In this document: piece by piece, positions 15,479-37,388 of the stretch
How positions within the stretch are numbered: the stretch's first letter is position 1
Layout: every line of letters begins with the position of its first letter
Assembly (NCBI GenBank): GCA_007376535.1
Contig: VMGK01000005.1
Span: 2,085 to 66,084, forward strand
Direction of reading: 5' to 3'
Source of the DNA: Candidatus Berkelbacteria bacterium Licking1014_7
GTDB taxonomy: Bacteria > Patescibacteriota > UBA1384 > GWA2-35-9 > CG2-30-39-44
Length of the DNA stretch: 64,000 bases
Program-made: the position numbers and the translations under genes
The notes under the pieces: model-generated
Told to the model about the DNA's origin: nothing
What the model saw: only the letters and a program-made list of their open reading frames with translations
The model's database searches: none

Positions 15479-16066
15479 TTATTTCTCCCAAATTATATGG
15501 CAGTTGATATTGTGTTTCTCATAATCTTTTAATACATCGGCGCAAAAATCCATCAACTCCTTATTTTTCTCGCTTTTGGCCAATTCATATAAACGAATAA
15601 ACATCTTTTTACCAGTTTCGGTCTGTTTGAGGTGTTTTTTAATAAAGTTGTGTTGAGCACATAAGGTCTGTCCATTTTCAACTATTGCTTTACCGCCTTC
15701 ATATCTTGATTTAATGTGATCAACTTGTAACTCAACTCCATCCTCTCTGCCTCGTCCACACAGGACACATTTATAGTCATCTCGTTTTAAGATAAATTCT
15801 TTTTGTTCAGGTGTAAAATCCTCTAAAATTCGTTGATTGACCATTTCGGGATCATATCTATATATTCCCTTATTTACTTTAACCAAAAAACCAACTTCGT
15901 GAAGATTTCTAATTGATCGCCAGGTATCTCTCGGTTTTTTATTATAAAGCCGCATGTACTTTGCTTCAACCCAATCAACAACTGGACCGTGTGGCATATC
16001 CTCTTTTGGATGTGCCTTGAAGTATTCAATAAGCAGGTCTCGTATTGATTTGTTTTTCTTTTTCAT
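15479..16066 (-). CDS. HNH endonuclease (probable restriction endonuclease partner of the adjacent methyltransferase)
   Basis: CVLCGRG...ELQVDHIKSRYEGG...NGQTLCAQHN (HNH with zinc-finger cysteines). Start at MKKKNK. Confidence 0.7.
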   Translation of the reverse strand: MKKKNKSIRDLLIEYFKAHPKEDMPHGPVVDWVEAKYMRLYNKKPRDTWRSIRNLHEVGFLVKVNKGIYRYDPEMVNQRILEDFTPEQKEFILKRDDYKCVLCGRGREDGVELQVDHIKSRYEGGKAIVENGQTLCAQHNFIKKHLKQTETGKKMFIRLYELAKSEKNKELMDFCADVLKDYEKHNINCHIIWEK

Positions 16067-16074
16067 AGTTATTA

Positions 16075-16914
16075 TTAAGTTAATAAATTTGGTTGATCTA
16101 TTTTTGCTTCTACCCGTAATCGCCTGATTGCTAAATCGCAATATTCTTTGTCAATATCAACACCAATTCCTTTTCTGTTGTGCAAATATGAAGCAATAAG
16201 CGTTGTTCCGCTACCCAAAAATGGGTCCAAAACTGTATCACCAATAAAACTAAATAATTTTATACATCGTCTCGGCAATTCAACCGGAAATGGCGCAGGA
16301 TGTCCGCCCGCCCCCTTTTTACTTTGGCCGGAGAATGTCCAAACACCATTTGTCCAATCCATAAATTCCTGCTTTGTAATGTCATTTTTCCTACTCCCGC
16401 CAGTTTTTTTCCAGCTGTCTTTATATAAAACTAAAATCAATTCAACAGGGGCAATGACATAAGGAGCTGAGGCAGACATATATGAACCCCAAGCGGTGCG
16501 GCGAGAAATATTTCCCTCGTTCCAGATAATCGTTGAGTGATATTTCCAGCCAATATCTTTTGCGATTTTTGTAATATCAGCGCCGACTGATTTTTGGCCA
16601 CCTTTATTTTTATCAAGAGGAATATTTAGCAAAAATCGTCCTTCCTTTTTTGCTAAATCAAAACATTTCTTAATCCATTTTTTGGTAAATTCTAAATAGT
16701 CTTCGTAAGTCAAATTGTCAGCGTGGGAATTGTAATGAATGTCAACATTATAAGGCGGTGAAGTAATAATTAGATCAACTGAATTTCCGGGTATGGCTGT
16801 AATCTTCAAAATATCGGCTTTGAAAATAGAAATTCCGTCTTTTTCAAAATATGGTTTTTGAGATTTCATCTCATCAATATTGCTAACTTGTTTTTCCGCC
16901 ATTATATTTTGCAT
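16075..16914 (-). CDS. β-class N4-cytosine/N6-adenine DNA methyltransferase
   Basis: Motif IV IITSPPYN near the N-terminus and motif I DPFLGSGTT near the C-terminus (N6_N4_Mtase order). Confidence 0.85.
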   Translation of the reverse strand: MQNIMAEKQVSNIDEMKSQKPYFEKDGISIFKADILKITAIPGNSVDLIITSPPYNVDIHYNSHADNLTYEDYLEFTKKWIKKCFDLAKKEGRFLLNIPLDKNKGGQKSVGADITKIAKDIGWKYHSTIIWNEGNISRRTAWGSYMSASAPYVIAPVELILVLYKDSWKKTGGSRKNDITKQEFMDWTNGVWTFSGQSKKGAGGHPAPFPVELPRRCIKLFSFIGDTVLDPFLGSGTTLIASYLHNRKGIGVDIDKEYCDLAIRRLRVEAKIDQPNLLT

Positions 16915-17204
16915 AAAATTTTTGTGATAAGCACAGCAACAGGGTTTATATCAATAGCAATTGATGGTCGTCCCATTACTTTTGATTCAACAAGCGTTGT
17001 GCCGCAACCACCAAATGGATCAACAATAGAATCACCCTCTCGCGTATATTTTTCCGCTAAGCGAGAGACAATTTGCGGAATAAACTTTGCGGGGTAGCGA
17101 TGATAGCCGTGCGTGATATACGTCGTGTCCTTCCTTGTTTTATCGGAAAAAGACCACGAATAATCAATTTTTGTCTTTGCGAGTAATGTTGTTATTTGTC
17201 TCAT
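16902..17204 (-). pseudogene. C-terminal fragment of an N6_N4 DNA methyltransferase (AdoMet-binding half only)
   Basis: HRYPAKFIPQIV...DSIVDPFGGCGTT...IAIDINP corresponds to the last ~100 aa of the N6_N4_Mtase domain. No DPPY motif. Confidence 0.5.
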
Positions 17205-17300
17205 AGCTTTTTTTTGTTAATTCCTCAATTTTCAAAATGTCTGAATTGGTCGCCTTTCGACTTGGCTCAAGGCGACTCTGAGATTGTCGTCTGGTCGTAA

Positions 17301-17313
17301 TTACTGAACGAAG
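17301..17313 (+). repeat. Left arm of a 13-bp inverted repeat TTACTGAACGAAG (partner at 18708-18720, next to tRNA-Pro)
   Basis: Exact 13-mer with extended 17/19 match. The two arms bracket the MTase fragment and the Bro-N gene. Confidence 0.5.
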
Positions 17314-17378
17314 CTCGAACCCCTTTCCTTTTTGCCCGCCCTCGCTTTCCGATTCCGATTTTACCGCCGCCGGAATCC

Positions 17379-17723
17379 TTATATCACTTGTAATTCCATC
17401 TGTAAATTTTTTCTCTCCGCTTTCCCCGTCTTAAACAAATTCGCTTTTTCATCCAATTCTTTTATTCTTCTTTCGGAAATTTTGACATACTTTTCGTTAG
17501 TATCAATTCCAATATTTTTTTCCCCTAACTTTTTTGCTGCCACAGCAGTTGTTCCGCTACCCATAAACGGATCAAAAACTAAATCACCCTTATTGCTTGC
17601 GGAAAGTAAAACTTGCTGAATTAACTTGAGCGGTTTTTGCGTTGGATGTGCTTTTATTCCATTTTCATCTCTTAATCTTTCTTGCCCTCTATACACACCA
17701 AAAACCCAATCAGTATCTTTCAT
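17379..17723 (-). CDS. Stand-alone C-terminal half of an N6_N4 DNA methyltransferase (HPTQKP...DPFMGSGTT)
   Basis: AHPTQKPLKLIQQVLLSASNKGDLVFDPFMGSGTTAVAAKKLGEKNIGIDTNEKY. The catalytic DPPY half is absent. 4-nt overlap with the upstream Bro-N gene. Confidence 0.5.
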   Translation of the reverse strand: MKDTDWVFGVYRGQERLRDENGIKAHPTQKPLKLIQQVLLSASNKGDLVFDPFMGSGTTAVAAKKLGEKNIGIDTNEKYVKISERRIKELDEKANLFKTGKAERKNLQMELQVI

Positions 17724-18562
17724 TTGTTATTCAAGTTTTTTCTTCTCTTTGCTTTCAGTAAATAATTTTTATTCGTCGGAACTTTTTTACCGCTTTTTCT
17801 TTCCAAATCTTTTCGTGCTTTGCCGGCTACACTTCCGCCTTCTTGCGCAACAATTTTATTTTCATTAAAACCTTGGGCATTTTTATTTTGAGCAATTTCC
17901 GTTGTTGACGCCTCTCCGAGCATTGAAAAAATTAACTCCAAATCATTCATATGATCTCGTAAATTCTCTCGCTTGAGTCCTTTGAATTTCTGATATTCGC
18001 TCGGCGTCATTCCAAAAGTTGCTTCGGAAATTTCAGCGGTTAAAATCGCGTATTCTTGGCCTTCCCTTACATCTCGTTTTTTCCATTCATTAGTCAGTGT
18101 TTCGCGAACTTCAATACCTCGCATCCTTTTTTCTATCCATGTATCAGAATATCCTTTGGCTTTATAAAGAGCTCGGGTTCTCTTAGTGGCTAACTCGGGG
18201 TCTTCAATTTCCTGTATTCTTTCATAGCCAACTCGAGCCAACCAACGTTTAAACGGTTCAGCTTTTGGCGACGGAATTGATTGAATAATGCGGAAAATGC
18301 CTTCCGTATTAGCGCTGGTTATCTTTCTTTTTTTGCCATCTTTAGCCACCATCTCAAGGAGGGGACAATTTGTCCCCCAGTAGACATTTAGCTCTTTGTC
18401 TCTCTTTCTCATCTTTTTTATATAATCTCTAACATCTACTGTATCGGTGAGCGCCCCAACTACATCCGCAACCGAAAACCACCATTCGTTTTTATGAATG
18501 ATTTTGCGAATTTCCTTTTTTTGGAAAATGGCAATTTTTGTAGTCGTAATTTTTCTGTTCAT
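17720..18562 (-). CDS. Bro-N domain protein (DinD / phage antirepressor-like)
   Basis: EWWFSVADVVGAL Bro-N signature. The C-terminal part resembles DNA-damage-inducible protein D. Confidence 0.55.
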   Translation of the reverse strand: MNRKITTTKIAIFQKKEIRKIIHKNEWWFSVADVVGALTDTVDVRDYIKKMRKRDKELNVYWGTNCPLLEMVAKDGKKRKITSANTEGIFRIIQSIPSPKAEPFKRWLARVGYERIQEIEDPELATKRTRALYKAKGYSDTWIEKRMRGIEVRETLTNEWKKRDVREGQEYAILTAEISEATFGMTPSEYQKFKGLKRENLRDHMNDLELIFSMLGEASTTEIAQNKNAQGFNENKIVAQEGGSVAGKARKDLERKSGKKVPTNKNYLLKAKRRKNLNNK

Positions 18563-18722: not shown

Positions 18723-18795
18723 TCGGGGTAGCCGGACTCGAACCGACGATCTTCGGACCCCCAGCCCGACGCTTTACCAACTAAGCTATACCCCG
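18723..18795 (-). tRNA. tRNA-Pro: tRNA-Pro (anticodon GGG)
   Basis: Cloverleaf read by hand: acceptor CGGGGTA/TACCCCG, D-loop AGTTGGTAA, anticodon loop CTGGGGG, T-loop GGTTCGAGTCC. No encoded CCA. Confidence 0.8.
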
Positions 18796-18912: not shown

Positions 18913-20022
18913 TTATTGATGCAAGCCGTTACTGAGTTGTTGTCTAATGCGTAAAACCTCAGCGGCATCAATTGCGTCTTGGGTTGCTTCGGTTTCTATT
19001 CTGGCTAATTCAGTATCTACTAATGCGGTAGTGTCTGTGTTTCCCAGAGTAGATAATTCTTTAAGTAATTGTTTCGCCTCAGCGATTCTTGTATGAATTA
19101 CTTGTTTTGCATCTTCGGTTTGAGATAAACGCAATTCATGTTCTAATCTTACAATTTGACTTGTGATTTGTCTTTGCAATTTGCCAAATTGTTTTGTCAA
19201 ATCATCGTTGCCCAATTGTCTGCGCCATTTTCTGCTTTTTAATCTTCTGGTAATTCTGTAGTAAAGAAAGCCCAAGTCAAATGATTTGGTTGCGTCGAAA
19301 GACCGCTTGATGAGCGCGCTAACTAGTCGGAATGTTCTAAACAAGATATAAACAATGCCGTCATAAAGAGCGACGATTAATATTCCGGGAAGTGAAAAAA
19401 TCATTACGATAGTAGAACTGATTACAGATAATCCGTTCCAAAATTCGCGTAATCCGCATCCCACACGTAGATATAAACCCAAAATCAATCCGCCCAATGC
19501 CCAAATAGTCAAGGGAAGCGATTTCCAGTGGCTATGTTTAAGATATGTTGGCGGTTTTAGCTTTTGAACCTTTTTGATCATATCTTGGGCATTAGTTTTG
19601 CCCAGCGCTACTTTTTCAAATTCAGGCGATTGAAGGTAATCGGGATTAACATTTGCCAACACAAATTGTAGTGCAGCCAATTGTTTTTTGGGGTCTTTTT
19701 CATCCAAAAGGGCTTTGGTTTGCCTGCCTCGCTCAAAGGCAATAATCGTGTCCTTTGGAGAATTTTTGGGGATCTGAATACCAACGTATCCTTGCCAAAA
19801 AGCGTTATTGTCAACAGCGGTTTGATAGGTTTCATATTTTCGCGTGAATTCTTGTCTTGTGTCATAATTGTCTATGCCTTTCGAAGACGAACAAAGCAAC
19901 GGCAGCACAATTATACAAACAATTATTAGAACTGAAAATTGTCCAAAAAATTCTGTATATATGGCTTCAGAAAATTTTAGATAATTTTTTTCTTTTGTTC
20001 TTCCTTTTGTTCTCATTGTCAA
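18913..20022 (-). CDS. Hypothetical membrane protein (N-terminal TM, two central TMs, C-terminal coiled coil)
   Basis: Hydrophobic segments plus a heptad-rich C-terminus. No family recognised. Confidence 0.4.
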   Translation of the reverse strand: MTMRTKGRTKEKNYLKFSEAIYTEFFGQFSVLIIVCIIVLPLLCSSSKGIDNYDTRQEFTRKYETYQTAVDNNAFWQGYVGIQIPKNSPKDTIIAFERGRQTKALLDEKDPKKQLAALQFVLANVNPDYLQSPEFEKVALGKTNAQDMIKKVQKLKPPTYLKHSHWKSLPLTIWALGGLILGLYLRVGCGLREFWNGLSVISSTIVMIFSLPGILIVALYDGIVYILFRTFRLVSALIKRSFDATKSFDLGFLYYRITRRLKSRKWRRQLGNDDLTKQFGKLQRQITSQIVRLEHELRLSQTEDAKQVIHTRIAEAKQLLKELSTLGNTDTTALVDTELARIETEATQDAIDAAEVLRIRQQLSNGLHQ

Positions 20023-21724: not shown

Positions 21725-21877
21725 GAACCCATGGCAAATCTCTCCAATCTACTACAATATGCCACATTTGGCTACAAAATGCTCATCGTTCGTCATCGTC
21801 CGCCTTGGCGGATGCTTCCTCACGTTTCGTATTTTTCGCTCAAATGTGATCATATTTCGCTACGATTGAGAGTTTTG
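21725..21877 (+). mobile_element. Complete MITE (153 bp) with 14-bp terminal inverted repeats GAACCCATgGCAAA / TTTGCAATGGGTTC
   Basis: Terminal inverted repeats with a single mismatch. Internal CCGCCTTGGCGG hairpin. Homologous copies at 3317, 24893, 29093, 29291 and others. Confidence 0.7.
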
Positions 21878-21904
21878 CAATGGGTTCTATGGGAGAATTC
21901 AAAT

Positions 21905-24215: not shown

Positions 24216-24401
24216 GTGCCAAAAAATAAAAAAAGACCATCAATTTATTTGAAATGCGAAAAGTGCAAAAGTTTGAATTATTTGTCAGTTCGCAGTGTCA
24301 TTAATACTCCGGAAAAATTGGAATTGAAAAAATTCTGCAAAAAATGCCGGGCGCACACTTTGCATAAAGAAGCGAAAATTTCCAAGCCCCGTAAGAAATA
24401 A
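24216..24401 (+). CDS. rpmG: 50S ribosomal protein L33
   Basis: CEKC...TPEKLELKKFCKKC...HKEAKI matches L33. GTG start 5 nt after TAGGAG. Confidence 0.8.
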   Translation: MPKNKKRPSIYLKCEKCKSLNYLSVRSVINTPEKLELKKFCKKCRAHTLHKEAKISKPRKK

Positions 24402-24553: not shown

Positions 24554-24627
24554 GGGGGCGTGGGTTAGTGGTAAACTATCGGTCTCCAAAACCGATGCCG
24601 GAGGTTCGATTCCTCCCGCCCCTGCCA
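24554..24627 (+). tRNA. tRNA-Trp: tRNA-Trp (anticodon CCA), CCA encoded
   Basis: Acceptor GGGGGCG/CGCCCCT (G-U closing pair), anticodon loop CTCCAAA, GGTTCGATTCC. Confidence 0.8.
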
Positions 24628-24892
24628 GTTGGTAAAAGAAGAGTTTGGCTCGGTCGCCACAGGCGACCTCGCCAGCCGATTTTTGGTTCAAAATCAAATT
24701 TTTTGCCTTTGTCCCCCACTAAATTTTAGTGGGGGACGCCAGAAGCGGGTTTTTCCTTAAAGTCCGCACAAAGCTTGGCTTGACCCGAGACGATTTAGTG
24801 AGAAAGTCAGCCGTCCAACACACAACCCTTACAAAAATTGAGAGTAATGTGATGAGAGTAATGTGATTAAAAAACCGTCGGTTATTACTCTG

Positions 24893-24988
24893 AACCCATT
24901 GCAAATCTCTCCAATCTACTACAATATGCCACATTTGGCTACAAAATACTCATCGTTCGTCATCGTCCGCCTTGGCGGATGCTTCCTC
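24893..24988 (+). mobile_element. MITE copy (5' half) between tRNA-Trp and the methyltransferase gene
   Basis: About 97% identical to 3317-3413. Confidence 0.6.
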
Positions 24989-25006
24989 AGACTTGATTAA
25001 ATAAAT

Positions 25007-26011
25007 ATGGAAACAAAATCAAAAAATCGAGCATCAAGAAATAGAACCATAACTTTAGATAATGGCGAGATTTCTCGCTTGAGAAAGAAACTTGTCAAAA
25101 TAGATAAGCCGGTTTCTATTTCGGATATTGAGAATAAAACTATCAATCAAGATATTTTTCAGATTTTGGATTTTTTGCCAGATAATTTTGTTAATTTAGT
25201 TTTTGTAGACCCACCTTATAACTTAAACAAAACTTTTAACTTAACTGCTTTTAAGGCAATGGAGTCCGAAAAGTATGAGGAGTGGTTAGATTCGTGGGTT
25301 CAAAAAATAATCCGTTTATTAAAACCAAATGCATCGGTTTATATTTGTGGTGATTGGAAATCATCGGGAGCAATTTTTAATGTGGTAAAAAAATATTTTC
25401 AAATTCAAAATAGAATAACTTTTGAAAGAGAAAAAGGGCGGGGCGCAAAATCAAATTGGAAAAATTGCTCGGAAGATATTTGGTTTTGTACATTTTCAGA
25501 CAAGTATAACTTTGATGTTGATGCGGTAAAAATGACAAGGAAAGTTATTGCTCCATACAAAGACGAAAACGGAAATCCGAAAGATTGGGAAATAACGGAA
25601 AATGGAAATTATCGCATAACCCATCCCTCTAATATTTGGACCGACATTACAATTCCCTTTTGGTCTATGCCAGAAAATACTGACCACCCGACACAAAAAC
25701 CAGAAAAATTGGTTGCCAAAGTTATTTTGGCCAGTTCAAAACCAAATGATATTGTTTTTGATCCGTTTCTTGGTTCAGGCACAACATCTGTTGTGGCAAA
25801 AAAACTTGGTCGTAAATATGTTGGTATTGATATAGATGAATTATATTGTTGTTTGGCAGAAAAACGGCTTGAGATGGTTGATAATGACAAGACAATTCAG
25901 GGATATTCTGACGGAGTTTTTTGGGAAAGGAATACATTAAACGAACAAAATAATGGTAAAAATAAAAAGTCGGAAAATAATCATAATTTACTTTTTGATA
26001 AACTATTATAA
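25007..26011 (+). CDS. β-class N4C/N6A DNA methyltransferase (full length)
   Basis: VFVDPPYNL (motif IV) then HPTQKP...DPFLGSGTT (motif I). Confidence 0.85.
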   Translation: METKSKNRASRNRTITLDNGEISRLRKKLVKIDKPVSISDIENKTINQDIFQILDFLPDNFVNLVFVDPPYNLNKTFNLTAFKAMESEKYEEWLDSWVQKIIRLLKPNASVYICGDWKSSGAIFNVVKKYFQIQNRITFEREKGRGAKSNWKNCSEDIWFCTFSDKYNFDVDAVKMTRKVIAPYKDENGNPKDWEITENGNYRITHPSNIWTDITIPFWSMPENTDHPTQKPEKLVAKVILASSKPNDIVFDPFLGSGTTSVVAKKLGRKYVGIDIDELYCCLAEKRLEMVDNDKTIQGYSDGVFWERNTLNEQNNGKNKKSENNHNLLFDKLL

Positions 26012-26013
26012 AT

Positions 26014-26673
26014 ATGAAAAGTCAAATATTTTACGCAGATGAGTATAAAAAATTAGAAAAGAAAATCACCGAGTTTCTTAATTCTCAAACTGATTTTTTA
26101 TCTCCACGCACAATCGACAGCCCTCGAGCTGTCGGCGACGCAATACAGGATTTATTGGCAGATAATTTTGGTAAAATTCTAGGCGATTTAAGCTCAAATT
26201 ATTCTTCGGATTTTGCCAGACGCGCCATGGCGGATTTAGCCTTTAATGACAAAGATGGGTTTTATTATGTTGTTGATGTAAAAACCCATAGATTAGATTC
26301 AAGTTTCAATATGCCAAATCTTACATCAGTTGAAAGATTGGCAAGATTTTATGAAGATGATAAAAATTATTTCATAGTATTAAAAACCGATTATAAAATT
26401 CAAAAAACAAAAATAATTATAGACAAAGTTAATTTCGTTCCGATTGAATTTTTGGGCTGGGATTGTTTGACGCTTGGTGCTCTCGGTTGGGGGCAAATAC
26501 AAATCGCTAATTCAAATAATGTTAGTATAGTTGCTAAAAACAGCAGAAAAAAGTGGATGTTGGAATTATGTGATTCTCTTTTTGAATTTTATCCAAGAGA
26601 GATTGGAAAAATAAACGACAGAATTTTATATTTCAAGCGTGTTAGAAAATACTGGGAAGGTAAAAAGGGATAA
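26014..26673 (+). CDS. Putative type II restriction endonuclease (PD-(D/E)xK)
   Basis: Begins 3 nt after the methyltransferase stop. D...VDVK arrangement (DLAFNDKDGFYYVVDVKTH) fits PD-(D/E)xK. No other homology recognisable. Confidence 0.5.
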   Translation: MKSQIFYADEYKKLEKKITEFLNSQTDFLSPRTIDSPRAVGDAIQDLLADNFGKILGDLSSNYSSDFARRAMADLAFNDKDGFYYVVDVKTHRLDSSFNMPNLTSVERLARFYEDDKNYFIVLKTDYKIQKTKIIIDKVNFVPIEFLGWDCLTLGALGWGQIQIANSNNVSIVAKNSRKKWMLELCDSLFEFYPREIGKINDRILYFKRVRKYWEGKKG

Positions 26674-27127
26674 TGAAGAATTCGCCGCCCCTTCGATCCA
26701 TTCAACGAGTTCAGGGTCGCACTGAGGAAATCGAAGGGCGATAAACTCAGGGCAGTTTTGGGCGAAATCTGTTCGGATTTTGTTCAAACAGACACCGCCA
26801 TATCTTGTTTTCAGGGAGGTGGAGGCAATGCGATTTAGCAGTAGAAGTTCTTTAACAAGAAGGCAAAGACGAAATAGAAAATTGAGCCGAACAAGGACAA
26901 ATAAGAGATTGAGACAAATGAGCAGCGGCGATTATTACATCTTATATTGTGTATTAAAACAAGCCAAGCGGGAAGAAGAACGAAAATGAAATGGCTGGTA
27001 GTAGTGTGCGATCCTAATCTTTATTGTGGTTGCTTCGGAATCAGTATCTCAATGTTTGGCGTCTAAATATGCCCCAAATGTTAAGCCGCCGATCGCATCT
27101 TTGATGTTTTAGGGCAGGTCAATTATA

Positions 27128-27161
27128 GCGGTAAAAAGAAATACTTTTTCCGCTTTTTTTT
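27128..27161 (+). terminator. Hairpin plus T-run (GCGGTAAAAAG-AAATA-CTTTTTCCGC TTTTTTTT)
   Basis: 10-bp stem followed by eight T residues. Confidence 0.4.
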
Positions 27162-27226
27162 ATTTCAACAATTTCAACAATGTTTCGATGTGACGACTAA
27201 TTCCAGAATTTAGTGCAACTTTGGTT

Positions 27227-28030
27227 TTATTTTTTGATAAATTTCTGCGCAAGTTTGGCGATAACGGCGCTGGAATCATTTTTTTCAAAAGCGCGCAGGA
27301 TTTCGATCGGTATAGCAAAAATTACAGTGTTTGATTGATCTGACGAAAGATCGTTTAAGGTATTTAAAGTTCTAAGATGCAGGGCGCCGGTTGATGATGA
27401 CAATGTTTGCGCCGCCTTGGCTAAATTTTTTGAGGCGATCACTTCACCTTCTGCTTTGGTGATAACCGCGCGTTTTTCTCGTTCTGCCTCTGCTTGTTTG
27501 GCAATCACCCGTTGCATTTCTTGCGGAAGGGAAACATCTTTCAGGTCAACATTTTCCACAGTGATGCCCCAAGGATCAGTGAGTTTGTCAACAATGGTCT
27601 TAATCTGATTAGACACATCGTCGCGTTTGGAAAGCAAAGTGTCCAGATCAACTGAGCCAACAATATTTCGCATCGTGGTTTGGGCTATCTGCGAGATAGC
27701 GTAGTAAAAATTTTCCACTTCAAGTACAGCTTTCGACACATCAGCAACTTTGTAGTAAATGACCGCGTTGATTTTGACTGAAATATTATCGCGCGTGATG
27801 GCTTCTTGGTCTGGCACATCCACTGCTTTGACACGAATATCCACTTTGATTAGCGATTCAATGATTGGCAAAATTAGTCGCCAGCCCGGATTAATAATAT
27901 TGACAAATTTTCCCAGCCGAAATTTGACACCGCGTTCAAATTGGTTAATTTGGCGAATACTAACCAGGATTATGATTAAAATTACAATCGCTATAACTGA
28001 AAGGATGAGAGTGTCTAAAAAAAAGTTCAT
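27227..28030 (-). CDS. SPFH/band-7 (stomatin/prohibitin-like) membrane protein
   Basis: N-terminal TM then the characteristic RGVKFRLGKF...DLK..SLP and coiled-coil EAEREKRA region. Confidence 0.8.
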   Translation of the reverse strand: MNFFLDTLILSVIAIVILIIILVSIRQINQFERGVKFRLGKFVNIINPGWRLILPIIESLIKVDIRVKAVDVPDQEAITRDNISVKINAVIYYKVADVSKAVLEVENFYYAISQIAQTTMRNIVGSVDLDTLLSKRDDVSNQIKTIVDKLTDPWGITVENVDLKDVSLPQEMQRVIAKQAEAEREKRAVITKAEGEVIASKNLAKAAQTLSSSTGALHLRTLNTLNDLSSDQSNTVIFAIPIEILRAFEKNDSSAVIAKLAQKFIKK

Positions 28031-28155
28031 AATTTTTTTTGTTTATTTTTGTTTATTTATGATATTATACAAAGAAATTGAGAAAGATGTCAAGGGATCC
28101 AATTTTGTGATGATTTTTAGAGGACTTTGTGATATATTTGTGATATAATACAATT

Positions 28156-28461
28156 ATGCAGAAAGAAAAAAATAAATTTCCCAAATTCTTAAAACGATAT
28201 TTTTGGGACACGGATTTTTCATTGCTTGATAGGCAAAAAAACCAAAAATATATTATTGAGCGGATTTTGGATTGGGGCGATGAACAGGGTATTGAATGGT
28301 TGTTTCAGACCTATTCAAGCCAAGAAATTAAAGCGGTGGTATTAACATCGCGAGAATTATTTAAGAAAAGCATTAATTTTTGGGGAATCATTTTAGAGTT
28401 AGGAGAAAAATGGAGGAAAGAGGCATTAGCGAAAAGACAAAACAAAATTTGGAATTATTAG
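28156..28461 (+). CDS. Small hypothetical protein upstream of and overlapping the AbiEii-like gene (possible antitoxin partner)
   Basis: 101-aa ORF with a 52-nt overlap with the downstream gene. No recognisable domain. Confidence 0.35.
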   Translation: MQKEKNKFPKFLKRYFWDTDFSLLDRQKNQKYIIERILDWGDEQGIEWLFQTYSSQEIKAVVLTSRELFKKSINFWGIILELGEKWRKEALAKRQNKIWNY

Positions 28462-29051
28462 CCAAAACACATTTTATTGGACAATTTTATTTAGCCGGCG
28501 GAACGGCTTGCGGTTTGTATTTTGGGCACAGAATTTCTTATGATTTAGATTTTTTTTCCGAGCGAAAATTTAACGCGCAGAAAATCAGAGATGAGTTAGA
28601 AAAAATGGGCGAACTCAAAATAGACATTATTGACGAAAATACTTTTTTGGGTTTTTTGAATAAAGTAAAGATAAGTTTTTTTTATTATAAATATCCGCTG
28701 ATTGGCGAGACGCAGGTCTATAGAGGGGTGAGGATTGTTTCAAAAAAGGACTTGCAGGCAATGAAAATTGACGCTTTGCAGTCGCGCGGCACAAAAAGGG
28801 ACTTTATTGATTTGTATACGATTTTGCAAGCAGATAATTATTCTATAAAAAACGCATTAGATAATTTTAAGGAAAAATACCAAAAGGCAAATTATAATAT
28901 GGAGCATATTTTGATGAGTTTGGTATATTTTGAAGACGCGGATAGGGATAATCGTCTCAATATGTTGGTATCATACGACTGGGAAAAAATAAAAAATTAT
29001 TTTATTGAGGACGTTAAAGCATACGAAAAAAATAGATTAAAAATCGATTAA
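28410..29051 (+). CDS. AbiEii/AbiGii-family nucleotidyltransferase (DUF1814-like) toxin candidate
   Basis: LAGGTACGLYFGHRISYDLDFF resembles the GG(T/S)AL...R.S.DIDF motif of AbiEii toxins. AGGAG RBS 4 nt upstream. Confidence 0.5.
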   Translation: MEERGISEKTKQNLELLAKTHFIGQFYLAGGTACGLYFGHRISYDLDFFSERKFNAQKIRDELEKMGELKIDIIDENTFLGFLNKVKISFFYYKYPLIGETQVYRGVRIVSKKDLQAMKIDALQSRGTKRDFIDLYTILQADNYSIKNALDNFKEKYQKANYNMEHILMSLVYFEDADRDNRLNMLVSYDWEKIKNYFIEDVKAYEKNRLKID

Positions 29052-29092
29052 ACAGGCTCTAAGGAGGGAAATTGGCGCGGCATTATCCCTTA

Positions 29093-29290
29093 GAACCCAT
29101 TTCAAAAATCCATATATTGCACATCCATCGTCTGGCTGAATGGGCAGCTGCAACAGCAGATATTCTGGCTGCAAAGATTAGAATAATTCGTCAACAGAGC
29201 TTCTGGCTATGCTTCCTCATTATTCTAACTTTTCGCTCATAATCTCTACTGTTTCGCTCCTCAATCAACCAGACGATGGATGTGGGTTCT
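29093..29290 (+). mobile_element. Complete MITE copy (about 198 bp)
   Basis: Begins GAACCCATTTCAAA and ends GGATGTGGGTTC. Confidence 0.55.
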
Positions 29291-29424
29291 TTTATCTGCT
29301 ATTTTGGCTGCAAACAATTCAGAGCTCGTCAGTGTCCGCCAAGGCGGATGCCTTCTCGCTCTTCATTGTTTTCGCTCAAAATATCAAATAAAATTATCAA
29401 AAGAGAGTTTTATAATGGGTTCCT
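29291..29424 (+). mobile_element. Second, 5'-truncated MITE copy in tandem. Its 3' terminal repeat TTTTATAATGGGTTC contains the ATG of the downstream gene
   Basis: TTTTGGCTGCAAA ... TCCGCCAAGGCGGATGC ... TTTCGCTCAAA ... ATAATGGGTTC. Confidence 0.55.
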
Positions 29425-31862
29425 ACAATTCGTTTGAGAATTTTATTCATAAAATAAAAAGGCGAACTTATTTATCGTTATTTTTGTCGGTTTTGGTGGT
29501 GGTTGGTTTTGGCGCGGGATTGATTTTTTGGTCTAAAAATGTTTCACGCGGGGCGACTACTTTAAGTGGAACTATCAATGGCTTACGGACAATTAGCGGA
29601 GACGCGGTGATCAAGACCAACCAAACAGTCACTCACGATCAGGGAAATACTACCGGAGGAACAGGATTGGGAGTGAATGTGAGTGGCACTTTAACCTTGG
29701 AAGCCGGCGCCAAAATTGATGTGAGCGGGAAGGGATATAAGGGGGGATATATTTTTTTTAGCATGAATAATATAGGTGGTTATTATTATACAGCTTTATT
29801 TCCGGCTAAGGGAAGCAAGGATGGCAACGCTCCTCAACAGCAAAATCAAGCTGGTGCCGGCGGAGACTGGGAAAATGGCGGGGCAGGCGGCGGCACAGGA
29901 TATAGAACGGCAAATAGACTGGGCGTTGGCGGCGGCGGCGGCGGCGCGTTTGGCTATGGCTCAGGCGGAAAAACCAACCATTCTTCGGCAAGCCCTGGAT
30001 GTTATGGCGGCGGCGGCGCGGGCTGGAAAGGCAAGGGCGGGGCAGGCGTTTGTTCTGGATCGGCGGTTAACGGTGCAGTAAGCGCCAGCATAAATTTTTC
30101 TAATGACAGTTGGTATAATAACGAGATTCTTTTTGGCGCTGGCGGCGCCAGCGGATTTACCATTACGCAGGATAACTCGGAGGGTGATGGCGGCAACAGT
30201 GAATGCGTCAAAGGCGGCAATGGCGGAGGGGCGGTAAAAATAAAAGCCAAAAAATTAAAAATTGAATCCGGGGCAAGCATATCGGCGGCAGGAAAATCGG
30301 GCGGAAAAATGTGCGATCTGGCTTATAGAGTAAAGTGGTTAACTTTTGGACAATTTACTTTGGGAGCGGCTGGGGGAGGCGGAACAATTTATATTGAGGT
30401 TGACGAATTGGAATTGCCTAGCGGTAATGATTATAATTTTGATGTTTCAGGCGGCGATGGTTGGGGGGCGCTGAGCGGGTCGATGTGGGCATCTTCCGGA
30501 GCAGGAGGCGGAGGGATAGTTGTAATTAGAATCGCAGGGGGAGGAAAAATAAAAATCGGGAATAATTATGTAGATAACTTTGCGACGGTTTACGCCAGAG
30601 CAGATTCCAACAAAGGCATGCTTCGCAATATCATAAACGATGTTTATATTTTAACCCAGAAAATACCTGATAGTGCTTGGGGGGGAGACGGCAAAGAAAT
30701 TTTTGCCGGCAATCCGACCATTCCCGGTGGTTCCACCACCTGCGACACATCAAAAATTAAATTGACTGATCCGTCGTTTTCCAGCCAACCGGCGGCGAAT
30801 TCTCATTACCAGCGCGGTGATACTTTTTCCTATAAGGCGCAATATATTAGTCAAGACAGCGGTTCAAATTGTTCTGGCAAGTATCAATTATATTTCCAGA
30901 CCGCTTTATCAAATGATTTAGAATTTATTGGTGGCAGTAAATTGACTCCCGGAAATTTAGATCCAACAATAGGTGGCGGTTTATTTTCAACTCAACATTG
31001 GGAAGTAAATTCAGCCGGTTCTTACACTGGTGATATTAAGATAAAAATAAAAGATAATGCTTGCAATCAGGCAGGCGGCGGCGTTGAGAACAAAATTCAA
31101 ATTTATCAAAAATACGATAATGGTGTGCTGATGGCGCCATCATCAGGAAATCCAGTTTACTCTAATGCGAATATAATTGTTGATTGTCCGGGCGTGGCGA
31201 TTTCCGGCAATGTTGGCGCAAGCAGTATAACTACGCCCGATCTAAAAATTATCGGTAATTCAGTGGTGGCGATTACGGGTTCCTCGTCAGCCACGCTTGA
31301 TTCACAAGTAGTAAATTTATCTGGTTATACCCATTCAATCAATTTTTCCGACATAAATACAAATTTTGAAGCGCTAAAAACCCGGCGGGCAATTAAGCCG
31401 AATCCTTGGACAAATAATTTTAATTTGAATAAGTACAATAAACCCGAAGGTGGAGTGTGGAAAGAACATCCTACCCCTATGAATAGAACTTTTCTGCAAG
31501 GGTCGCGAGGCACGATATTTCATACTGGCGATTTGACAATAGATGGAATTTCTTGGCAAGGCGCGACGGCTGGTGTTTTGGGCATCGTGGTGAAAGATGG
31601 TAATGTGATGATCAAAGATTTAAATTTAAAAAATGTGGCGATTTACGCGTACGACACCGGTGGCGCGGAAGACGGAAAAATCACTTTTGGCACGGGCGCA
31701 ACGGACGAAACATTAGACATGACCGGTTCGTTTGTCGCTAAAAGCATTGAAATTAAAAGTAAGAAGGGTAATATTAAACATTCGGACGGATTAGATAAAA
31801 ATCCTCCGCCCGGATTTTCTAACTTGCAGTCGCAAATAAAAATTTTAGAAAAAGCGCGGTAG
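29415..31862 (+). CDS. Large glycine-rich secreted/surface protein (N-terminal signal anchor, predicted β-helix/adhesin-like)
   Basis: TM segment LSLFLSVLVVVGFGAGLIFW followed by long GGxGGxG tracts and NxxG repeats. Confidence 0.55.
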   Translation: MGSYNSFENFIHKIKRRTYLSLFLSVLVVVGFGAGLIFWSKNVSRGATTLSGTINGLRTISGDAVIKTNQTVTHDQGNTTGGTGLGVNVSGTLTLEAGAKIDVSGKGYKGGYIFFSMNNIGGYYYTALFPAKGSKDGNAPQQQNQAGAGGDWENGGAGGGTGYRTANRLGVGGGGGGAFGYGSGGKTNHSSASPGCYGGGGAGWKGKGGAGVCSGSAVNGAVSASINFSNDSWYNNEILFGAGGASGFTITQDNSEGDGGNSECVKGGNGGGAVKIKAKKLKIESGASISAAGKSGGKMCDLAYRVKWLTFGQFTLGAAGGGGTIYIEVDELELPSGNDYNFDVSGGDGWGALSGSMWASSGAGGGGIVVIRIAGGGKIKIGNNYVDNFATVYARADSNKGMLRNIINDVYILTQKIPDSAWGGDGKEIFAGNPTIPGGSTTCDTSKIKLTDPSFSSQPAANSHYQRGDTFSYKAQYISQDSGSNCSGKYQLYFQTALSNDLEFIGGSKLTPGNLDPTIGGGLFSTQHWEVNSAGSYTGDIKIKIKDNACNQAGGGVENKIQIYQKYDNGVLMAPSSGNPVYSNANIIVDCPGVAISGNVGASSITTPDLKIIGNSVVAITGSSSATLDSQVVNLSGYTHSINFSDINTNFEALKTRRAIKPNPWTNNFNLNKYNKPEGGVWKEHPTPMNRTFLQGSRGTIFHTGDLTIDGISWQGATAGVLGIVVKDGNVMIKDLNLKNVAIYAYDTGGAEDGKITFGTGATDETLDMTGSFVAKSIEIKSKKGNIKHSDGLDKNPPPGFSNLQSQIKILEKAR

Positions 31863-32121
31863 TCAAATATAAATCAAAAAGCAAATCCGCCAGCTGGCGG
31901 ATTAATCTCAAATCTCAAAATTCAAATCTCCCGTCCGCCATCGCTATCGCTCAGGCGATTAGCGGGCAGGCAAAATGACAATCCAAAATTCAAAACTCTA
32001 AATCCTAAATTCTAAATTCTAAGAAAATTATGTTCCCCATTTTCAACAACATCAATCACCAAAAATTTGACAAGCAAAACGGTTAGGTTGTATAATAGAG
32101 TTAATCAAAAGGAGAGGGAAA

Positions 32122-32685
32122 ATGGATCAAATAATCAGACCGCAAAATAGCGAGCGACCGGTAAGCTCGGCAGAAATTAAGAATACAATTCGCCTAAAAA
32201 ATCTGGCGACGGTTTTTGGTATTATTTCAATTTCCGTAATTATTTTATCGGCGCTTTCGTTCTTTATTGTCTGGCAAAAAAACAGCCAAATTTCATCAAT
32301 TCAAGATACCATCGATACCAAAAATCAGGGCTTGGACGTCTCGTATAAAACCATTATTTCTCAGCAGGAAACCCTCAAAAAACAAATTGCGGTTTTATCT
32401 GAGCAGGATACATCGTCAATTGATTACACCCAAGAATTGTGGGAAGAATTGTCTAAATCAGCAGTTAAAAATGTTCGATTGGTCGGTCTCACATTTGACA
32501 ATAAAACCATTTCTTTAGAAGGGCAAGCGGGAAGTTTTTCTGACATCGCGCGCCAGTTGGTGGCGTGGCGCCAGGCGACTAATTTTTCCAATGTGGAACT
32601 GGCATCTATCACTACTGCGGATAATGGACAAAAACAATTTGGCGCCCAGTTAAGCTTTAAGGTCACCCAAAAATCAAACGACTAA
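32122..32685 (+). CDS. pilN: PilN-like type IV pilus assembly protein (bitopic, coiled coil)
   Basis: Single TM after about 30 residues, coiled coil, position upstream of a PilO-like gene and pilB. Confidence 0.45.
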   Translation: MDQIIRPQNSERPVSSAEIKNTIRLKNLATVFGIISISVIILSALSFFIVWQKNSQISSIQDTIDTKNQGLDVSYKTIISQQETLKKQIAVLSEQDTSSIDYTQELWEELSKSAVKNVRLVGLTFDNKTISLEGQAGSFSDIARQLVAWRQATNFSNVELASITTADNGQKQFGAQLSFKVTQKSND

Positions 32686-32697
32686 TCCCCAAAATCA

Positions 32698-33351
32698 ATG
32701 ACCAGCGCGTACGAACAAAATCGTCAAAATTCGTCTTTAATTTTTCTTGAGGTGATTATTATAATCGCCGGATTGTATTTTGGCGTGTGGTGGCAGATGA
32801 ATAAAAACCGCGTCTTATCGCAAAATTTAAGCAGTAAACAGCAGGAATTCGCGATAGTAAAAGACAAAGAGGCGAAATTAGAAACATTAAAGCGGGAATT
32901 TTCCACGCGCAAATCAGAACTGCAAAATTTTAATATCGCGGCGCCTGAGATGTCAGAAATTCCCGAAGCGCTGATGATGATTGAGGCGATTGTGAGTCGC
33001 TCTGGCGCTGATTTGACGAATTTAACTCCCCAGAAACCCACTGGCGGCCAGGTTGAAATTGATTTGTGTCTGGCGTCAAATTATGAGCAGATGAAAACAT
33101 TTTTTACTATTTTGAAAAATAATTTAAGACCAGTGTCAGTTGATTCAATTAAGGTTTTAGCCAGTCAAGATGCCAGCGCCGCGCAAGCCAAATCGCTGTC
33201 TGTGTCAGTAAAATTAAAAATGCCTTATATGGTCAAAAATAACGACAAGACCTCTGATGGTTCAAGTAATAACCCGAGCGATAACTTAAGTAATAATCCC
33301 GGCGCCGGTCCAAGCGACGGGCAAACCATAAATAACACACAAAACGAATGA
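32698..33351 (+). CDS. pilO: PilO-like type IV pilus assembly protein
   Basis: N-terminal TM, coiled coil, position in the pilus operon. Confidence 0.45.
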   Translation: MTSAYEQNRQNSSLIFLEVIIIIAGLYFGVWWQMNKNRVLSQNLSSKQQEFAIVKDKEAKLETLKREFSTRKSELQNFNIAAPEMSEIPEALMMIEAIVSRSGADLTNLTPQKPTGGQVEIDLCLASNYEQMKTFFTILKNNLRPVSVDSIKVLASQDASAAQAKSLSVSVKLKMPYMVKNNDKTSDGSSNNPSDNLSNNPGAGPSDGQTINNTQNE

Positions 33352-33596
33352 TGATAAAATACAATAATTTTTTAATTGGGATGGGTATTTCTATAGTTCT
33401 GATAATTCTTTATATTTTTTTGTTAGTGTCGGGCAGGTCTGTAAGCGATAAAATCCAAGTTCAATCCGATATGTTAAATCCGCAGGAATTTCAAAATGGT
33501 CTCAACATCATCAGTAAAAAAGAAAAAAACGGGGATTTGCCAGTCAATACCAATGACGAATTACTGCAAAGAAGCGATCCGTTTGAAGGATTGTAG
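33348..33596 (+). CDS. Small membrane protein in the pilus operon (PilP-like?)
   Basis: N-terminal TM. Translationally coupled to the upstream gene. Confidence 0.3.
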   Translation: MMIKYNNFLIGMGISIVLIILYIFLLVSGRSVSDKIQVQSDMLNPQEFQNGLNIISKKEKNGDLPVNTNDELLQRSDPFEGL

Positions 33597-33736
33597 GATA
33601 GAAATTCAAATCTCAAATCTCAAATCTCAAAGCCACAGCGTAAAACTTAAAACCATTTTAAATTATCTAAGTTTTTACATTTGAGTTGTGGTTTTGAGTT
33701 TTACGTTTTAACATTTATGATTAAATTAATGTCATT

Positions 33737-33815
33737 TTGCCTGCCCCGTAAAATTTCTTAATTGCCTGCCCCGTAATCCCGCCAAGGCGGGATCTTCGGG
33801 GTAATTTAATTTCTT
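33737..33815 (+). repeat. Second copy of the 78-bp repeat
   Basis: See 8850-8927. Confidence 0.6.
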
Positions 33816-33861
33816 AATTTTTCATTCTTAATTCTTATTTATTATATTGGAGGGAAATTAG

Positions 33862-36093
33862 ATGGTTAATATTATTAAGTCACGCGACAAGAGAGATATT
33901 TTGGATGTCTTGCGCTCTAAAAATATTATTGATGAGTTAACCTACAATTTTATTAGCAAAAACTTTAGCACTAATGAAACGCGCATTCAGGCGCTGGAAA
34001 AAAAGAATATTGTTTCGCAGGAGGATTTATCCAAAGCCGCGGCGGAAATTTTTAATCTTCCGTTTGTCCATATTCAGGGAAAAAAGTTGGATTTTGAGGT
34101 ATTGAATTTAATTCCGTTTGAAATTTGTCAAAAATATAAAATTGTTTGTCTTGAAAAAAAGGGCAATGCCTATCAAATCGCTGTTGCCAGACCGTATCGT
34201 TTGGGCGGCAAAAAATCAGGACTATTGCACAACATTGAAAAAGAAAGATCAGTGGAGTTTCATTTGTCTGCCAGCACTGAGCCAGATGTTGATTGGGCTT
34301 TAAAGATTTATGAAAATTTTTTGTCTGAGCGGGCGGAAAAAAATACTCAGACCAACCTACCGTCCGCTCGGACTGATAAAGTGAAAATTTCTAATTTGCC
34401 TAGGGCTAAATTAGACGGACGATTTGATTTATTGGAAACAATCAGAAAAATTCCGCTGGAAATTATCAGACGTTATAAAATCGCGCTTTTTGAAATTTCA
34501 GATGAAAATATTTTTAAGATCGCCATGCTGGATTCGTTTGATCCGCGCGCCAGAGAAATTATCAATTTCATCAGTCAAAAAAACGGGGTGAAAGTTGAGC
34601 AGTATCAAATTGAGTCAAGGGATTTGGATTGGGTTTTGCAAAATTACAATTCTGCCGCGGCCGTTCAGCCAAGCGCGTCTAAAAACATTGAATCAGAAAA
34701 ATTAGCGCCGGATCAAGGCGCGCCCGACTCATCATCGTCAAAGGAAGTGATTGAAAAAAACGGTATGTTCACTATTCCTGAGGAAGCGATTGCCAAGCCC
34801 GGTTTATCCGGCGGCGAGGTGGACTTGGCTCAGGCAGACAAAACGGGCGCGATCAATCAAGATGAGATTGAAACGGATTTAGATACTTTTCTGGGGAAAC
34901 TGGTTACTAATGCCAAAGAATTGACGCAGATTATTGTGGAAGGTTTTGTGCCTAAAATGGTGGCGGGAATTTTGTCTTTGGGTATTAGTTTGCGCGCCTC
35001 TGATGTTCATCTGGAAGCCACCAGAAAGGGTTTGCGTCTAAGATATCGGGTTGATGGCGATTTGTTGGATTTTATTTATATGCCGATTGCTTTGCATCCG
35101 CCGATTATTTCCAGAATAAAAATTTTATCCGGTCTCAAAATTGATGAGCAGAGAATTCCCCAAGACGGCCGGTATAATGCCAAAGTCCAAAATCACGAAA
35201 TTGATGTTCGGGTTTCGTCATATCCGACAATTCATGGCGAAAAAATCGCCATGCGTCTTTTAGATAAGACCGCCAGCCAGTACAGTTTAGAGGATTTGGG
35301 GTTGACAGGCGCGCCGCTGGAAAAAATTAATCAAGAGATTATCAAGCCCTGGGGAGTGGTGATCATTACCGGTCCGACTGGTTCAGGTAAAAGCACGACT
35401 TTATACGCGATATTGAATGCAATTTCAAGTCCCAAAATCAATATCGTCACTTTGGAAGATCCGGTTGAGTATGATATTCCCGGGGTAAATCAAGCGCAAA
35501 TTAAGCCCAAAATCGGTTTTTCTTTTGCCGAAGGGCTAAGATCGATTTTGCGTCAGGATCCCAATGTGATAATGGTGGGCGAGGTGCGGGATTCTGAAAC
35601 AGCCAATCTGGTCACGCATGCGGCTTTAACCGGTCATTTGGTGCTTACCACTTTGCATACCAATGACGCGTCGTCCGCCCTGCCGCGATTAACCAATATG
35701 AAGGTTGAGCCGTATCTGATTACCAGCGCGATCAATGTAATTATTGCCCAGCGACTGATTAGAAAATTATGTCAGAAATGCAAACAGCCAATTAAAGTTC
35801 CCGCGCCGGTCCTAGAGTCAGAAGGGGTAAAAGACGTTAACGAGATGAAATTTTTTGGTCCGGGCAAAGGTTGCGGTGAATGCCGCAATGGTTATAAAGG
35901 CAGGATTGGAATTTTTGAAATTTTGGTGATGACTGACGCGATTGAGAAATTGGCGATAAATCACGCCCCGGTGTCGGAAATTTTGAAGCAGGCGATACAA
36001 GACGGAATGGTATCGTTAAAAGAAGACGGGATTGCCAAAGCCAAGCAGGGGATGGTGTCTTTGTCTGATATTTTGCAAGCAGTGAATGAGTGA
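33862..36093 (+). CDS. pilB: Type IV pilus assembly ATPase PilB (GspE family)
   Basis: GPTGSGKSTT Walker A, C-terminal tetracysteine CQKC...CGEC, N-terminal GSPII_E domains. Confidence 0.9.
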   Translation: MVNIIKSRDKRDILDVLRSKNIIDELTYNFISKNFSTNETRIQALEKKNIVSQEDLSKAAAEIFNLPFVHIQGKKLDFEVLNLIPFEICQKYKIVCLEKKGNAYQIAVARPYRLGGKKSGLLHNIEKERSVEFHLSASTEPDVDWALKIYENFLSERAEKNTQTNLPSARTDKVKISNLPRAKLDGRFDLLETIRKIPLEIIRRYKIALFEISDENIFKIAMLDSFDPRAREIINFISQKNGVKVEQYQIESRDLDWVLQNYNSAAAVQPSASKNIESEKLAPDQGAPDSSSSKEVIEKNGMFTIPEEAIAKPGLSGGEVDLAQADKTGAINQDEIETDLDTFLGKLVTNAKELTQIIVEGFVPKMVAGILSLGISLRASDVHLEATRKGLRLRYRVDGDLLDFIYMPIALHPPIISRIKILSGLKIDEQRIPQDGRYNAKVQNHEIDVRVSSYPTIHGEKIAMRLLDKTASQYSLEDLGLTGAPLEKINQEIIKPWGVVIITGPTGSGKSTTLYAILNAISSPKINIVTLEDPVEYDIPGVNQAQIKPKIGFSFAEGLRSILRQDPNVIMVGEVRDSETANLVTHAALTGHLVLTTLHTNDASSALPRLTNMKVEPYLITSAINVIIAQRLIRKLCQKCKQPIKVPAPVLESEGVKDVNEMKFFGPGKGCGECRNGYKGRIGIFEILVMTDAIEKLAINHAPVSEILKQAIQDGMVSLKEDGIAKAKQGMVSLSDILQAVNE

Positions 36094-36272
36094 TAGAAAT
36101 TGAAAATTGAAAATTGATGTGGAATGTTTGAAAATTGTGTTATTGAAAATTGATTGAAAATTGAAAATTGAAAATTGAAAATTTCTATATAGATAGTTTT
36201 AAGTTTTACGCTGTGGCTTGGATATTTTACATTTTACTTTTCAGATATAAAATATGTTATAATGAATTCATT

Positions 36273-37340: not shown

Positions 37341-37388
37341 TGTGTTACAAGAGGGCGCAGACAGAGGATCATTTTATGAAGAAAAATT

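Follow-up and report, generated by a model that had tools for sequence, protein, structure and literature searches.

A type IIP restriction-modification cassette, probably acquired horizontally, with a SwaI/HincII-like endonuclease and a decayed putative regulator gene beside tRNA-Trp in a Candidatus Berkelbacteria genome

What kind of system is encoded by two adjacent genes downstream of a tRNA-Trp gene in Candidatus Berkelbacteria bacterium Licking1014_7, and how did it come to be there? We examined a stretch of 64,000 nt from contig VMGK01000005.1 (positions 2,085 to 66,084; hereafter, the window), in which a preliminary description had placed a complete type II restriction-modification (R-M) pair next to a miniature inverted-repeat transposable element (MITE), inserted into a conserved tRNA cluster where secE-nusG would normally follow. 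Both open reading frames (ORFs) lie on the plus strand where that description had put them: a methyltransferase gene (M) and, after a 2-nt spacer (TAA-AT-ATG), a second gene (ORF2, hereafter R). Our analysis indicates that the locus is very probably a type IIP R-M cassette that arrived by horizontal transfer into a tRNA-adjacent defense island, that its endonuclease resembles SwaI and HincII, and that its putative regulator gene has decayed. As type II R-M systems go, it is routine; the subfamily of its endonuclease is uncharacterized but very widespread. Positions of all features discussed are collected in Table 1.

The assignment of R drew on family profiles and structure prediction. Compared alone with PDB entry 1kc6, ORF2 matched at E = 0.089, and this match and that to the Pfam HincII family PF09226 both fall on the HincII catalytic segment. 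A 66-sequence alignment of the ORF2 family was used both as a profile and for AlphaFold2 modeling. Searched against the PDB, the profile matched HincII at E = 1.1e-7 over HincII residues 103–254 and SwaI marginally, at E = 2e-3, over the full length (residues 5–215), and 12 of the 66 members matched PF09226 at E ≤ 0.01 (best, 5e-4). The resulting model of R had a predicted local distance difference test (pLDDT) score of 96.1 and a predicted template modeling (pTM) score of 0.90. With this model as the query, Foldseek returned SwaI as the first PDB match (template modeling [TM] score 0.72, E = 7e-9, probability 1.00), followed by 38 HincII chains (TM up to 0.69) and then by EcoRV (TM ~0.5, E ~1e-3). 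Residues D74, D88-V-K90, and P101-N102 of R align with D114, D127-V-K129, and P140-N141 of HincII, whose numbering was cross-checked against the names of the Q138F and N141A PDB entries, and D74, D88, K90, and N102 are invariant across the close subfamily of R. The HincII profile homology, the high-confidence SwaI/HincII/EcoRV-like model, and the invariable linkage to a methyltransferase described below bear out the proposed identity of R as a PD-(D/E)xK restriction endonuclease and give it the fold of SwaI, HincII, and EcoRV; homology of ORF2 to a non-nuclease family, which was also checked for, was not found. Relatives of ORF2 number 4566 at E ≤ 1e-3 in a database clustered at 90% identity and 457 in a library of 50% representatives; the database names are all "hypothetical protein." In some distant members of the alignment (P0163, P0177, P0201, P0219, and P0225 among them), D74 is replaced by Asn and K90 by Ile, and these are possibly inactive or mechanistically altered relatives.

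The paper on the SwaI structure places SwaI, HincII, and EcoRV together by structure, as homodimeric type IIP enzymes that wrap around a palindromic site and cleave it at the center, leaving blunt ends (PMC5415892). Read from its fold, R is probably also a homodimer that makes a central blunt cut in a palindrome. Its top full-length structural match, R.SwaI of Staphylococcus warneri (ATTT^AAAT; PDB 5tgq/5tgx), aligns over 224 columns (219 against 226 aa) and is itself a homodimeric type IIP PD-(D/E)xK blunt cutter (PMC5415892), as is predicted for R, but sequence identity is just 10–12%, and whereas SwaI recognizes an 8-bp target of A and T only, nothing points to such a target for R. By sequence, R is closest to R.HincII/HindII (GTY^RAC; PF09226; PDB 1kc6), with which it has C-terminal QIQ and RxxW motifs in common. 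Identity here is 15–19%, and R is ~40 residues shorter and lacks the large insertion of HincII. The intercalating Q138 of HincII is Asn in R, and N141 of HincII, which contacts DNA, aligns with N102. R.EcoRV (GAT^ATC) belongs to the same group of blunt-cutting homodimers, with ~10% identity to R and no match at the sequence level.

M was assigned from curated models. It matched Pfam N6_N4_Mtase (PF01555) at 150 bits, against a gathering cutoff of 26.7, over profile positions 1–221 of 221 (residues 62–286), and PADLOC type II methyltransferase models at up to 229 bits (MTase_II). In the translation, FVDPPYNL (~residues 66–73) precedes FDPFLGSGTT (~residues 250–259), placing motif IV N-terminal to motif I. 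This order, DPPY before FxGSGTT, marks the circular permutation of the beta class and, with the PF01555 match, bears out the class first given to M. The nearest solved structures are adenine methyltransferases (9c3u/8urk, 125 bits; MboIIA, 96; CcrM, 83; RsrI, 76), and structures of N4-cytosine enzymes scored lower, at 41–53 bits. From the DPPY motif and the higher adenine-methyltransferase scores, the target base of M is likely N6-adenine. M.MboIIA, CcrM, M.RsrI, and Escherichia coli YhdJ (PRK11524) have the PF01555 domain and the motif order in common with M. It scored 75–125 bits against the solved structures, and its matches to NCBIfam adenine-methyltransferase models fell under their equivalog cutoffs (149 against 292 bits for PRK11524); M is therefore not an ortholog of any named enzyme.

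We then asked whether the two genes travel together. In a survey of one genome per GTDB species with a 12-sequence alignment as the query, at least 488 species had a relative of R, and 80 loci were retrieved, some copies being cut off by contig ends. A homologous M (54–89% identity) lay directly upstream of the R homolog on the same strand at 80 of 80 loci, which span many phyla. In six metagenome or metagenome-assembled genome (MAG) contexts with unrelated neighbors, a homologous PF01555 gene likewise precedes the R homolog, either 2 nt away or overlapping it by 4 nt. Against two copies of the cassette, one from a Caldisericia MAG (L001) and one from a Shapirobacteria MAG (L007), ratios of nonsynonymous to synonymous substitution rates (dN/dS) came to 0.04–0.05 for M and 0.05–0.07 for R, at dS ~1.0–1.3. 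Values this low in both genes indicate that M and R have been kept functional, and, as judged from these rates, both are under strong purifying selection. By adjacency, co-inheritance, and catalytic motif, the locus is a type II (IIP) R-M pair, in which M and R are predicted to have the same target and cleavage to be blocked by M methylation.

The pair had been called complete, which holds for M and R, both of which are intact, but not for the cassette from which they appear to descend. In the Caldisericia copy, a 68-aa gene of the helix-turn-helix (HTH) family HTH_3 (XRE/Cro) stops 2 nt ahead of M, and the TAAATATG junction there is the same as the junction between M and R. Intact HTH_3 genes stand before M in three relatives (L001, L004, and L032; 46–47 bits). 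In the window, we found a remnant of this gene, for which Pfam returned a sub-threshold, truncated HTH_3/HTH_19 match (positions 3–41 of 55). A perfect 14-bp tandem duplication, missing from the Caldisericia HTH gene in the alignment, shifts the reading frame and so produces the premature stop, and a MITE fragment takes the place of the 3′ third of the gene. The final five codons (DLIK*) survive next to M with the conserved junction; the Caldisericia gene ends in "...DELMK*" and the Shapirobacteria gene in "...DLMG*", each followed by TAAATATG. HTH remnants were likewise seen in L011, L021, L022, and L033, and ~65 of 71 evaluable loci are without any HTH gene. Comparison of these loci indicates that the ancestral cassette consisted of three genes, HTH-M-R, with an HTH protein of 68–72 aa. 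Beyond the end of the tRNA, the upstream regions of the window and the Caldisericia copy showed no clear conservation.

In R-M systems with a C protein, such as PvuII, AhdI, and Esp1396I, the C gene usually precedes and controls R, and M is often transcribed separately. The ancestral cassette resembles these systems in having a small XRE/Cro-type HTH gene, co-oriented, at the head of the operon, which in the cassette ends 2 nt before the next gene. It differs from them in its order, HTH-M-R, and in that the HTH gene is absent from most relatives and destroyed here. Since no intact HTH gene stands beside M-R in the window, the present locus falls outside the C-protein systems.

The MITE reported beside the pair was confirmed as a member of a family of four copies or fragments, with five matches to its terminal inverted repeat (TIR) against 0.01 expected by chance. 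The full copy is 163 nt long, has 20-nt TIRs, and folds as a hairpin (z = -7.8). The fragment within the HTH gene is 99% identical to positions 3311–3413, where the family has an identical fragment that likewise consists of the left arm only, and 95% identical to the corresponding left portion of the full copy; it carries a TIR at 24892–24911 and ends 18 nt ahead of the M start codon. A right half of the element, sought downstream of the pair on the idea that the cassette had inserted into a MITE, was not present there. For three of the four MITE copies, a start codon is no more than ~20 nt away, namely that of holB (21906), of M (25007), or of the 860-aa gene (~29415–29430).

The position of the pair was examined by synteny. 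We found one syntenic relative, L091, in which the ortholog of the tetratricopeptide repeat (TPR) gene is 50% identical. Upstream, this relative is collinear with the window through the tyrosyl-tRNA synthetase gene, an M50 peptidase gene, holB, the TPR gene, tRNA-Thr/Tyr/Thr, L33, and tRNA-Trp, matching the upstream order in the window (tRNA-Thr, tRNA-Tyr, tRNA-Thr, rpmG, tRNA-Trp). Downstream, it is collinear from a 779-aa ortholog of the 860-aa gene through PilN to PilB. Only a single unrelated gene, of 172 aa, stands in the 0.8 kb that separate tRNA-Trp from the large protein there, and the R-M cassette is absent. In the window, the corresponding interval is a 4.8-kb island that holds the HTH remnant, M, and R (M starting 379 nt after the end of tRNA-Trp), a 553-nt gap, a Band 7/SPFH gene, a DUF6922-AbiEii pair, and a diverged MITE; the Band 7 and DUF6922-AbiEii genes have no counterpart at this position in the relative. 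The GC content is 0.361 for the island against 0.393 for the window. As judged against this relative, the M-R pair lies in a lineage-specific island 3′ of tRNA-Trp, and the ancestral neighbor after tRNA-Trp is a type IV pilus cluster rather than secE-nusG. The expectation of secE-nusG at this place was thus mistaken, and none of secE, nusG, rplK, and rplA was among the window ORFs scanned.

These comparisons also bear on how the cassette was acquired. Protein identity to the Caldisericia and Shapirobacteria copies is 89–90%, with ~83% identity at the DNA level, and copies at 60–80% identity occur in Chloroflexota, Planctomycetota, Elusimicrobia, Proteobacteria, Cyanobacteria, and other groups. 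In six of six comparisons, cassette GC was lower than that of the host locus (here, 0.323 against 0.393). By these measures, the cassette is mobile and was horizontally acquired into this Berkelbacteria genome. Insertion as first described is accordingly upheld by the ~90% protein identity across phyla, the low GC, and the absence from the syntenic relative. What does not stand is its place and extent, as the inserted DNA is not inside the tRNA cluster and is not the pair alone but a composite island that follows the last tRNA of the cluster.

Table 1 Positions of the cassette, its island, and other features in the window
Feature	Position (nt)	Strand	Basis or remark
MITE copy, left arm only	3317–3413		
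GC-rich palindromic repeat	6742–6805		Second repeat family
GC-rich palindromic repeat	7048–7111		Second repeat family
Gene next to second island	13112–15430		Ortholog abuts tRNA-Pro in L091
Second island	15479–18562	-	Window-specific
HNH endonuclease gene	15479–16141	-	Second island
PF01555 methyltransferase gene	16075–16914	-	Second island
C-terminal methyltransferase fragment	17379–17723	-	Second island
Bro-N gene	17720–18562	-	Second island
tRNA-Pro	18723–18795		
369-aa ORF	18913–20022	-	No Pfam match
MITE, full copy	21725–21887		
rpmG (L33)	~24216–24401		Upstream of tRNA-Trp
tRNA-Trp (cca)	24554–24627	+	ARAGORN; Rfam RF00005, 66 bits; variable island starts at its 3′ side
Variable island	24628–29429		4.8 kb, defined against syntenic relative L091
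HTH remnant, 45 codons then premature stop	24729–24866	+	Aligned to L001 HTH gene; hmmsearch E = 3.5e-19 against HTH profile
14-bp perfect tandem duplication (TGAGAGTAATGTGA x2)	24839–24866	+	Repeat search, 100% identical, spacing 14
MITE fragment, left TIR and central GC hairpin, 97 nt	24892–24988	+	Left arm only; takes the place of the 3′ third of the HTH gene
Final five codons of HTH gene (DLIK*)	24990–25004	+	Conserved TAAATATG junction to M
M gene, beta-class DNA methyltransferase, 334 aa	25007–26011	+	PF01555, PADLOC, motif order
R gene (ORF2), PD-(D/E)xK endonuclease, 219 aa	26014–26673	+	HincII profile match, AlphaFold2 model, Foldseek, M linkage
Gap, R stop to Band 7 stop	26674–27226		553 nt
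Band 7/SPFH gene	27227–28030	-	Pfam
DUF6922 + AbiEii toxin-antitoxin (type IV/abortive-infection) pair	28156–29051		Pfam
MITE, diverged full copy	~29260–29422		
860-aa gene	29430–31856		779-aa ortholog in L091
GC-rich palindromic repeat	31911–31974		Second repeat family
Type IV pilus cluster	32122–45062		
rplJ-rplL	45287–46849		L10 leader, RF00557, 46.6 bits
GC-rich palindromic repeat	46950–47001		Second repeat family, inverted

Taken together, the following mechanism can be proposed for a horizontally acquired type IIP cassette of this kind. We infer enzymatic activity for both proteins: methylation by M would shield the DNA of the host at a site that is short and probably palindromic, and a homodimer of R would probably cut unmethylated copies of that site centrally, leaving blunt ends. 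With a 2-nt spacer between them, M and R are probably co-transcribed and translationally coupled. The XRE/Cro-type HTH protein encoded upstream may originally have been the controller; its gene was inactivated by the tandem duplication of 14 bp and by the fragment of the MITE, with M and R left intact. The cassette is one part of a 4.8-kb island of defense and addiction-type modules 3′ of tRNA-Trp.

Several results weigh against this proposal. Taken as a single sequence, ORF2 scored below every curated threshold (Pfam HincII, 14.7 bits against 23.7, E = 0.019), which makes it a distant relative outside the curated HincII family, and it matched no NCBIfam or PADLOC restriction endonuclease model. 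The window contains 42 GTYRAC sites and 10 GTTAAC sites; neither sequence is avoided, so HincII specificity cannot be assumed for R. Pooled Markov observed/expected (O/E) ratios for all 4- and 6-bp palindromes, taken over 603 kb of host flanks from the 80 loci, gave no single outlier, with many sites at 0.45–0.65. That the HTH protein was a controller-type regulator, dispensable after establishment, we infer from its family, position, and orientation only; no operator (C-box) was identified, though no systematic operator search was made. A promoter and terminator scan around the cassette gave no convincing sigma-70-type site above shuffled background, and since no promoter was found and the HTH gene and upstream region are disrupted, expression of the cassette is assumed.

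The last of these points is shared by a different account of the locus, in which the system is decaying: after loss of the HTH gene and insertion of the MITE, R would be unexpressed or inactive and M a de facto orphan. The HTH gene is clearly destroyed, no site upstream of M beats the shuffled background as a promoter, and HTH loss recurs in relatives, while some distant members of the R family have N and I for D74 and K90. Against this, neither ORF is truncated, every catalytic and family-invariant residue is in place, and the dN/dS of R against two relatives (0.05–0.07) argues for retained function, although as an average over the whole divergence it could miss a very recent inactivation. 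The ~65 of 71 evaluable loci that keep M-R without an HTH gene further imply that the pair functions without it, and we regard decay as improbable. Very improbable indeed is that ORF2 is some other PD-(D/E)xK nuclease, for example a resolvase or repair nuclease, beside a solitary methyltransferase. The fold is common to Hjc resolvases, to which Foldseek gave weak partial matches (TM ~0.3, E ~5e-4), and every database name is "hypothetical protein," but full-length structural matches are limited to the type IIP enzymes SwaI, HincII, and EcoRV, and the HincII profile match extends past the catalytic core to include the C-terminal QIQ and R-x-x-W. Linkage to one methyltransferase family at 80 of 80 loci, with a 2-nt gap or 4-nt overlap, is moreover an R-M signature.

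A further possibility concerns delivery only and is compatible with an R-M cassette acquired horizontally, namely that the island was brought in by a tRNA-targeting integrase, as part of an integrative element or prophage that has since decayed. The island is immediately 3′ of tRNA-Trp, a second island 3′ of tRNA-Pro carries a phage-type Bro-N gene, and loci of the closest clade are enriched near tRNA or tmRNA genes (6 of 22 within 500 nt against ~6% expected, P ~0.002). However, no integrase or recombinase is among the ORFs at 24.6–29.4 kb (HTH remnant, M, R, Band 7, DUF6922, and AbiEii), the window holds a single copy of the final 25 nt of tRNA-Trp even when three mismatches are allowed, and neither a flanking direct repeat in the window nor an attachment (att)-type repeat or duplicated tRNA end in five other loci was found. 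The adjoining RNA genes in relatives vary (Ser-gga, Ser-cga, Val, Arg, Ala, and tmRNA, against Trp here), again with no integrase and no att repeat, and such differing identities make a single site-specific integrase unlikely. A search of annotated plasmids and phages gave no ORF2 relative, and in IMG/VR, the R gene is on only 4 of 2.9 million viral contigs. We therefore consider integrase delivery rather unlikely. Quite unlikely, too, is a reading of the whole as an uncharacterized subfamily with an uncatalogued recognition sequence that spreads across phyla by landing 3′ of tRNA or tmRNA genes without integrase or att site and sheds its controller once established. It might land, once DNA has been taken up, through homology on one side only, to conserved tRNA sequence; a type IV pilus cluster is encoded next door.

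The relation to tRNA genes was followed across the survey. That the cassette is always beside a tRNA, as in five of the first six loci (tRNA or tmRNA), was rejected, since the survey shows enrichment and no rule. A tRNA lay within 500 nt at 7 of 79 loci overall (expected ~2%, P = 0.0014), and the corresponding counts were 6 of 22 in the closest clade (expected ~6%, P = 0.002) and 1 of 57 among more distant loci (expected ~0.4%, P = 0.21). The close relatives L001, L004, L005, L011, L020, L022, L031, L032, L033, and L048 often lie 0–300 nt from a tRNA or tmRNA gene.

Palindrome counts were also made inside 74 cassettes, and no target was singled out there. Depletion of TTTAAA in the window and host flanks was no stronger than that of many other palindromes. 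Over the whole window, O/E ratios of 4-bp palindromes were low for GGCC (0.15), CTAG (0.33), TCGA (0.34), CATG (0.39), and AGCT (0.41), suggesting prolonged exposure to several restriction systems with 4-bp sites, none of them related to this pair.

Other features of the window concern its organization. The 553-nt gap after R holds no convincing ORF and is an unusually long non-coding stretch for the candidate phyla radiation (CPR); it has no Rfam match, and its 53-aa minus-strand ORF has no Pfam match. Across the whole window, Rfam matched only tRNAs and the L10 leader. The leader accompanies rplJ-rplL directly after the type IV pilus cluster, which encodes PilN/O, PilB, PilT, PilC, a prepilin peptidase, and several pilins, and, with no secE, nusG, rplK, or rplA among the ORFs scanned, the usual secE-nusG-rplKAJL block appears split in this genome. 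A candidate placement of nusG/rplA at 32122–33351 was rejected, as the ORFs there are PilN/PilO. The second island lies immediately 3′ of tRNA-Pro, and in the syntenic relative, which has no second island, the ortholog of the adjacent gene directly abuts tRNA-Pro. On the other side of tRNA-Pro, between it and the M50 peptidase gene, stands a 369-aa ORF; this interval is just ~115 nt in the relative, making the ORF lineage-specific. A second family of GC-rich palindromic repeats (CCCGCCCGCCATCGCT...AGCGGGCAGG) has four intergenic copies with 94–96% identity between them, unrelated to the MITE near the cassette.

These results give a confident functional assignment for a large family of "hypothetical proteins" that has 4566 clusters at 90% identity, is present in at least 488 species of many phyla, and is missed by all Pfam, NCBIfam, and PADLOC models. 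Its members are assigned as SwaI/HincII-like restriction endonucleases whose partner is always one beta-class methyltransferase. For enzymology, the R family is a candidate source of new blunt-cutting specificity. For the CPR/Patescibacteria, the locus shows active exchange of defense cassettes across phyla, with a very small genome carrying two defense islands 3′ of tRNA genes and a cassette whose regulator has been repeatedly lost.

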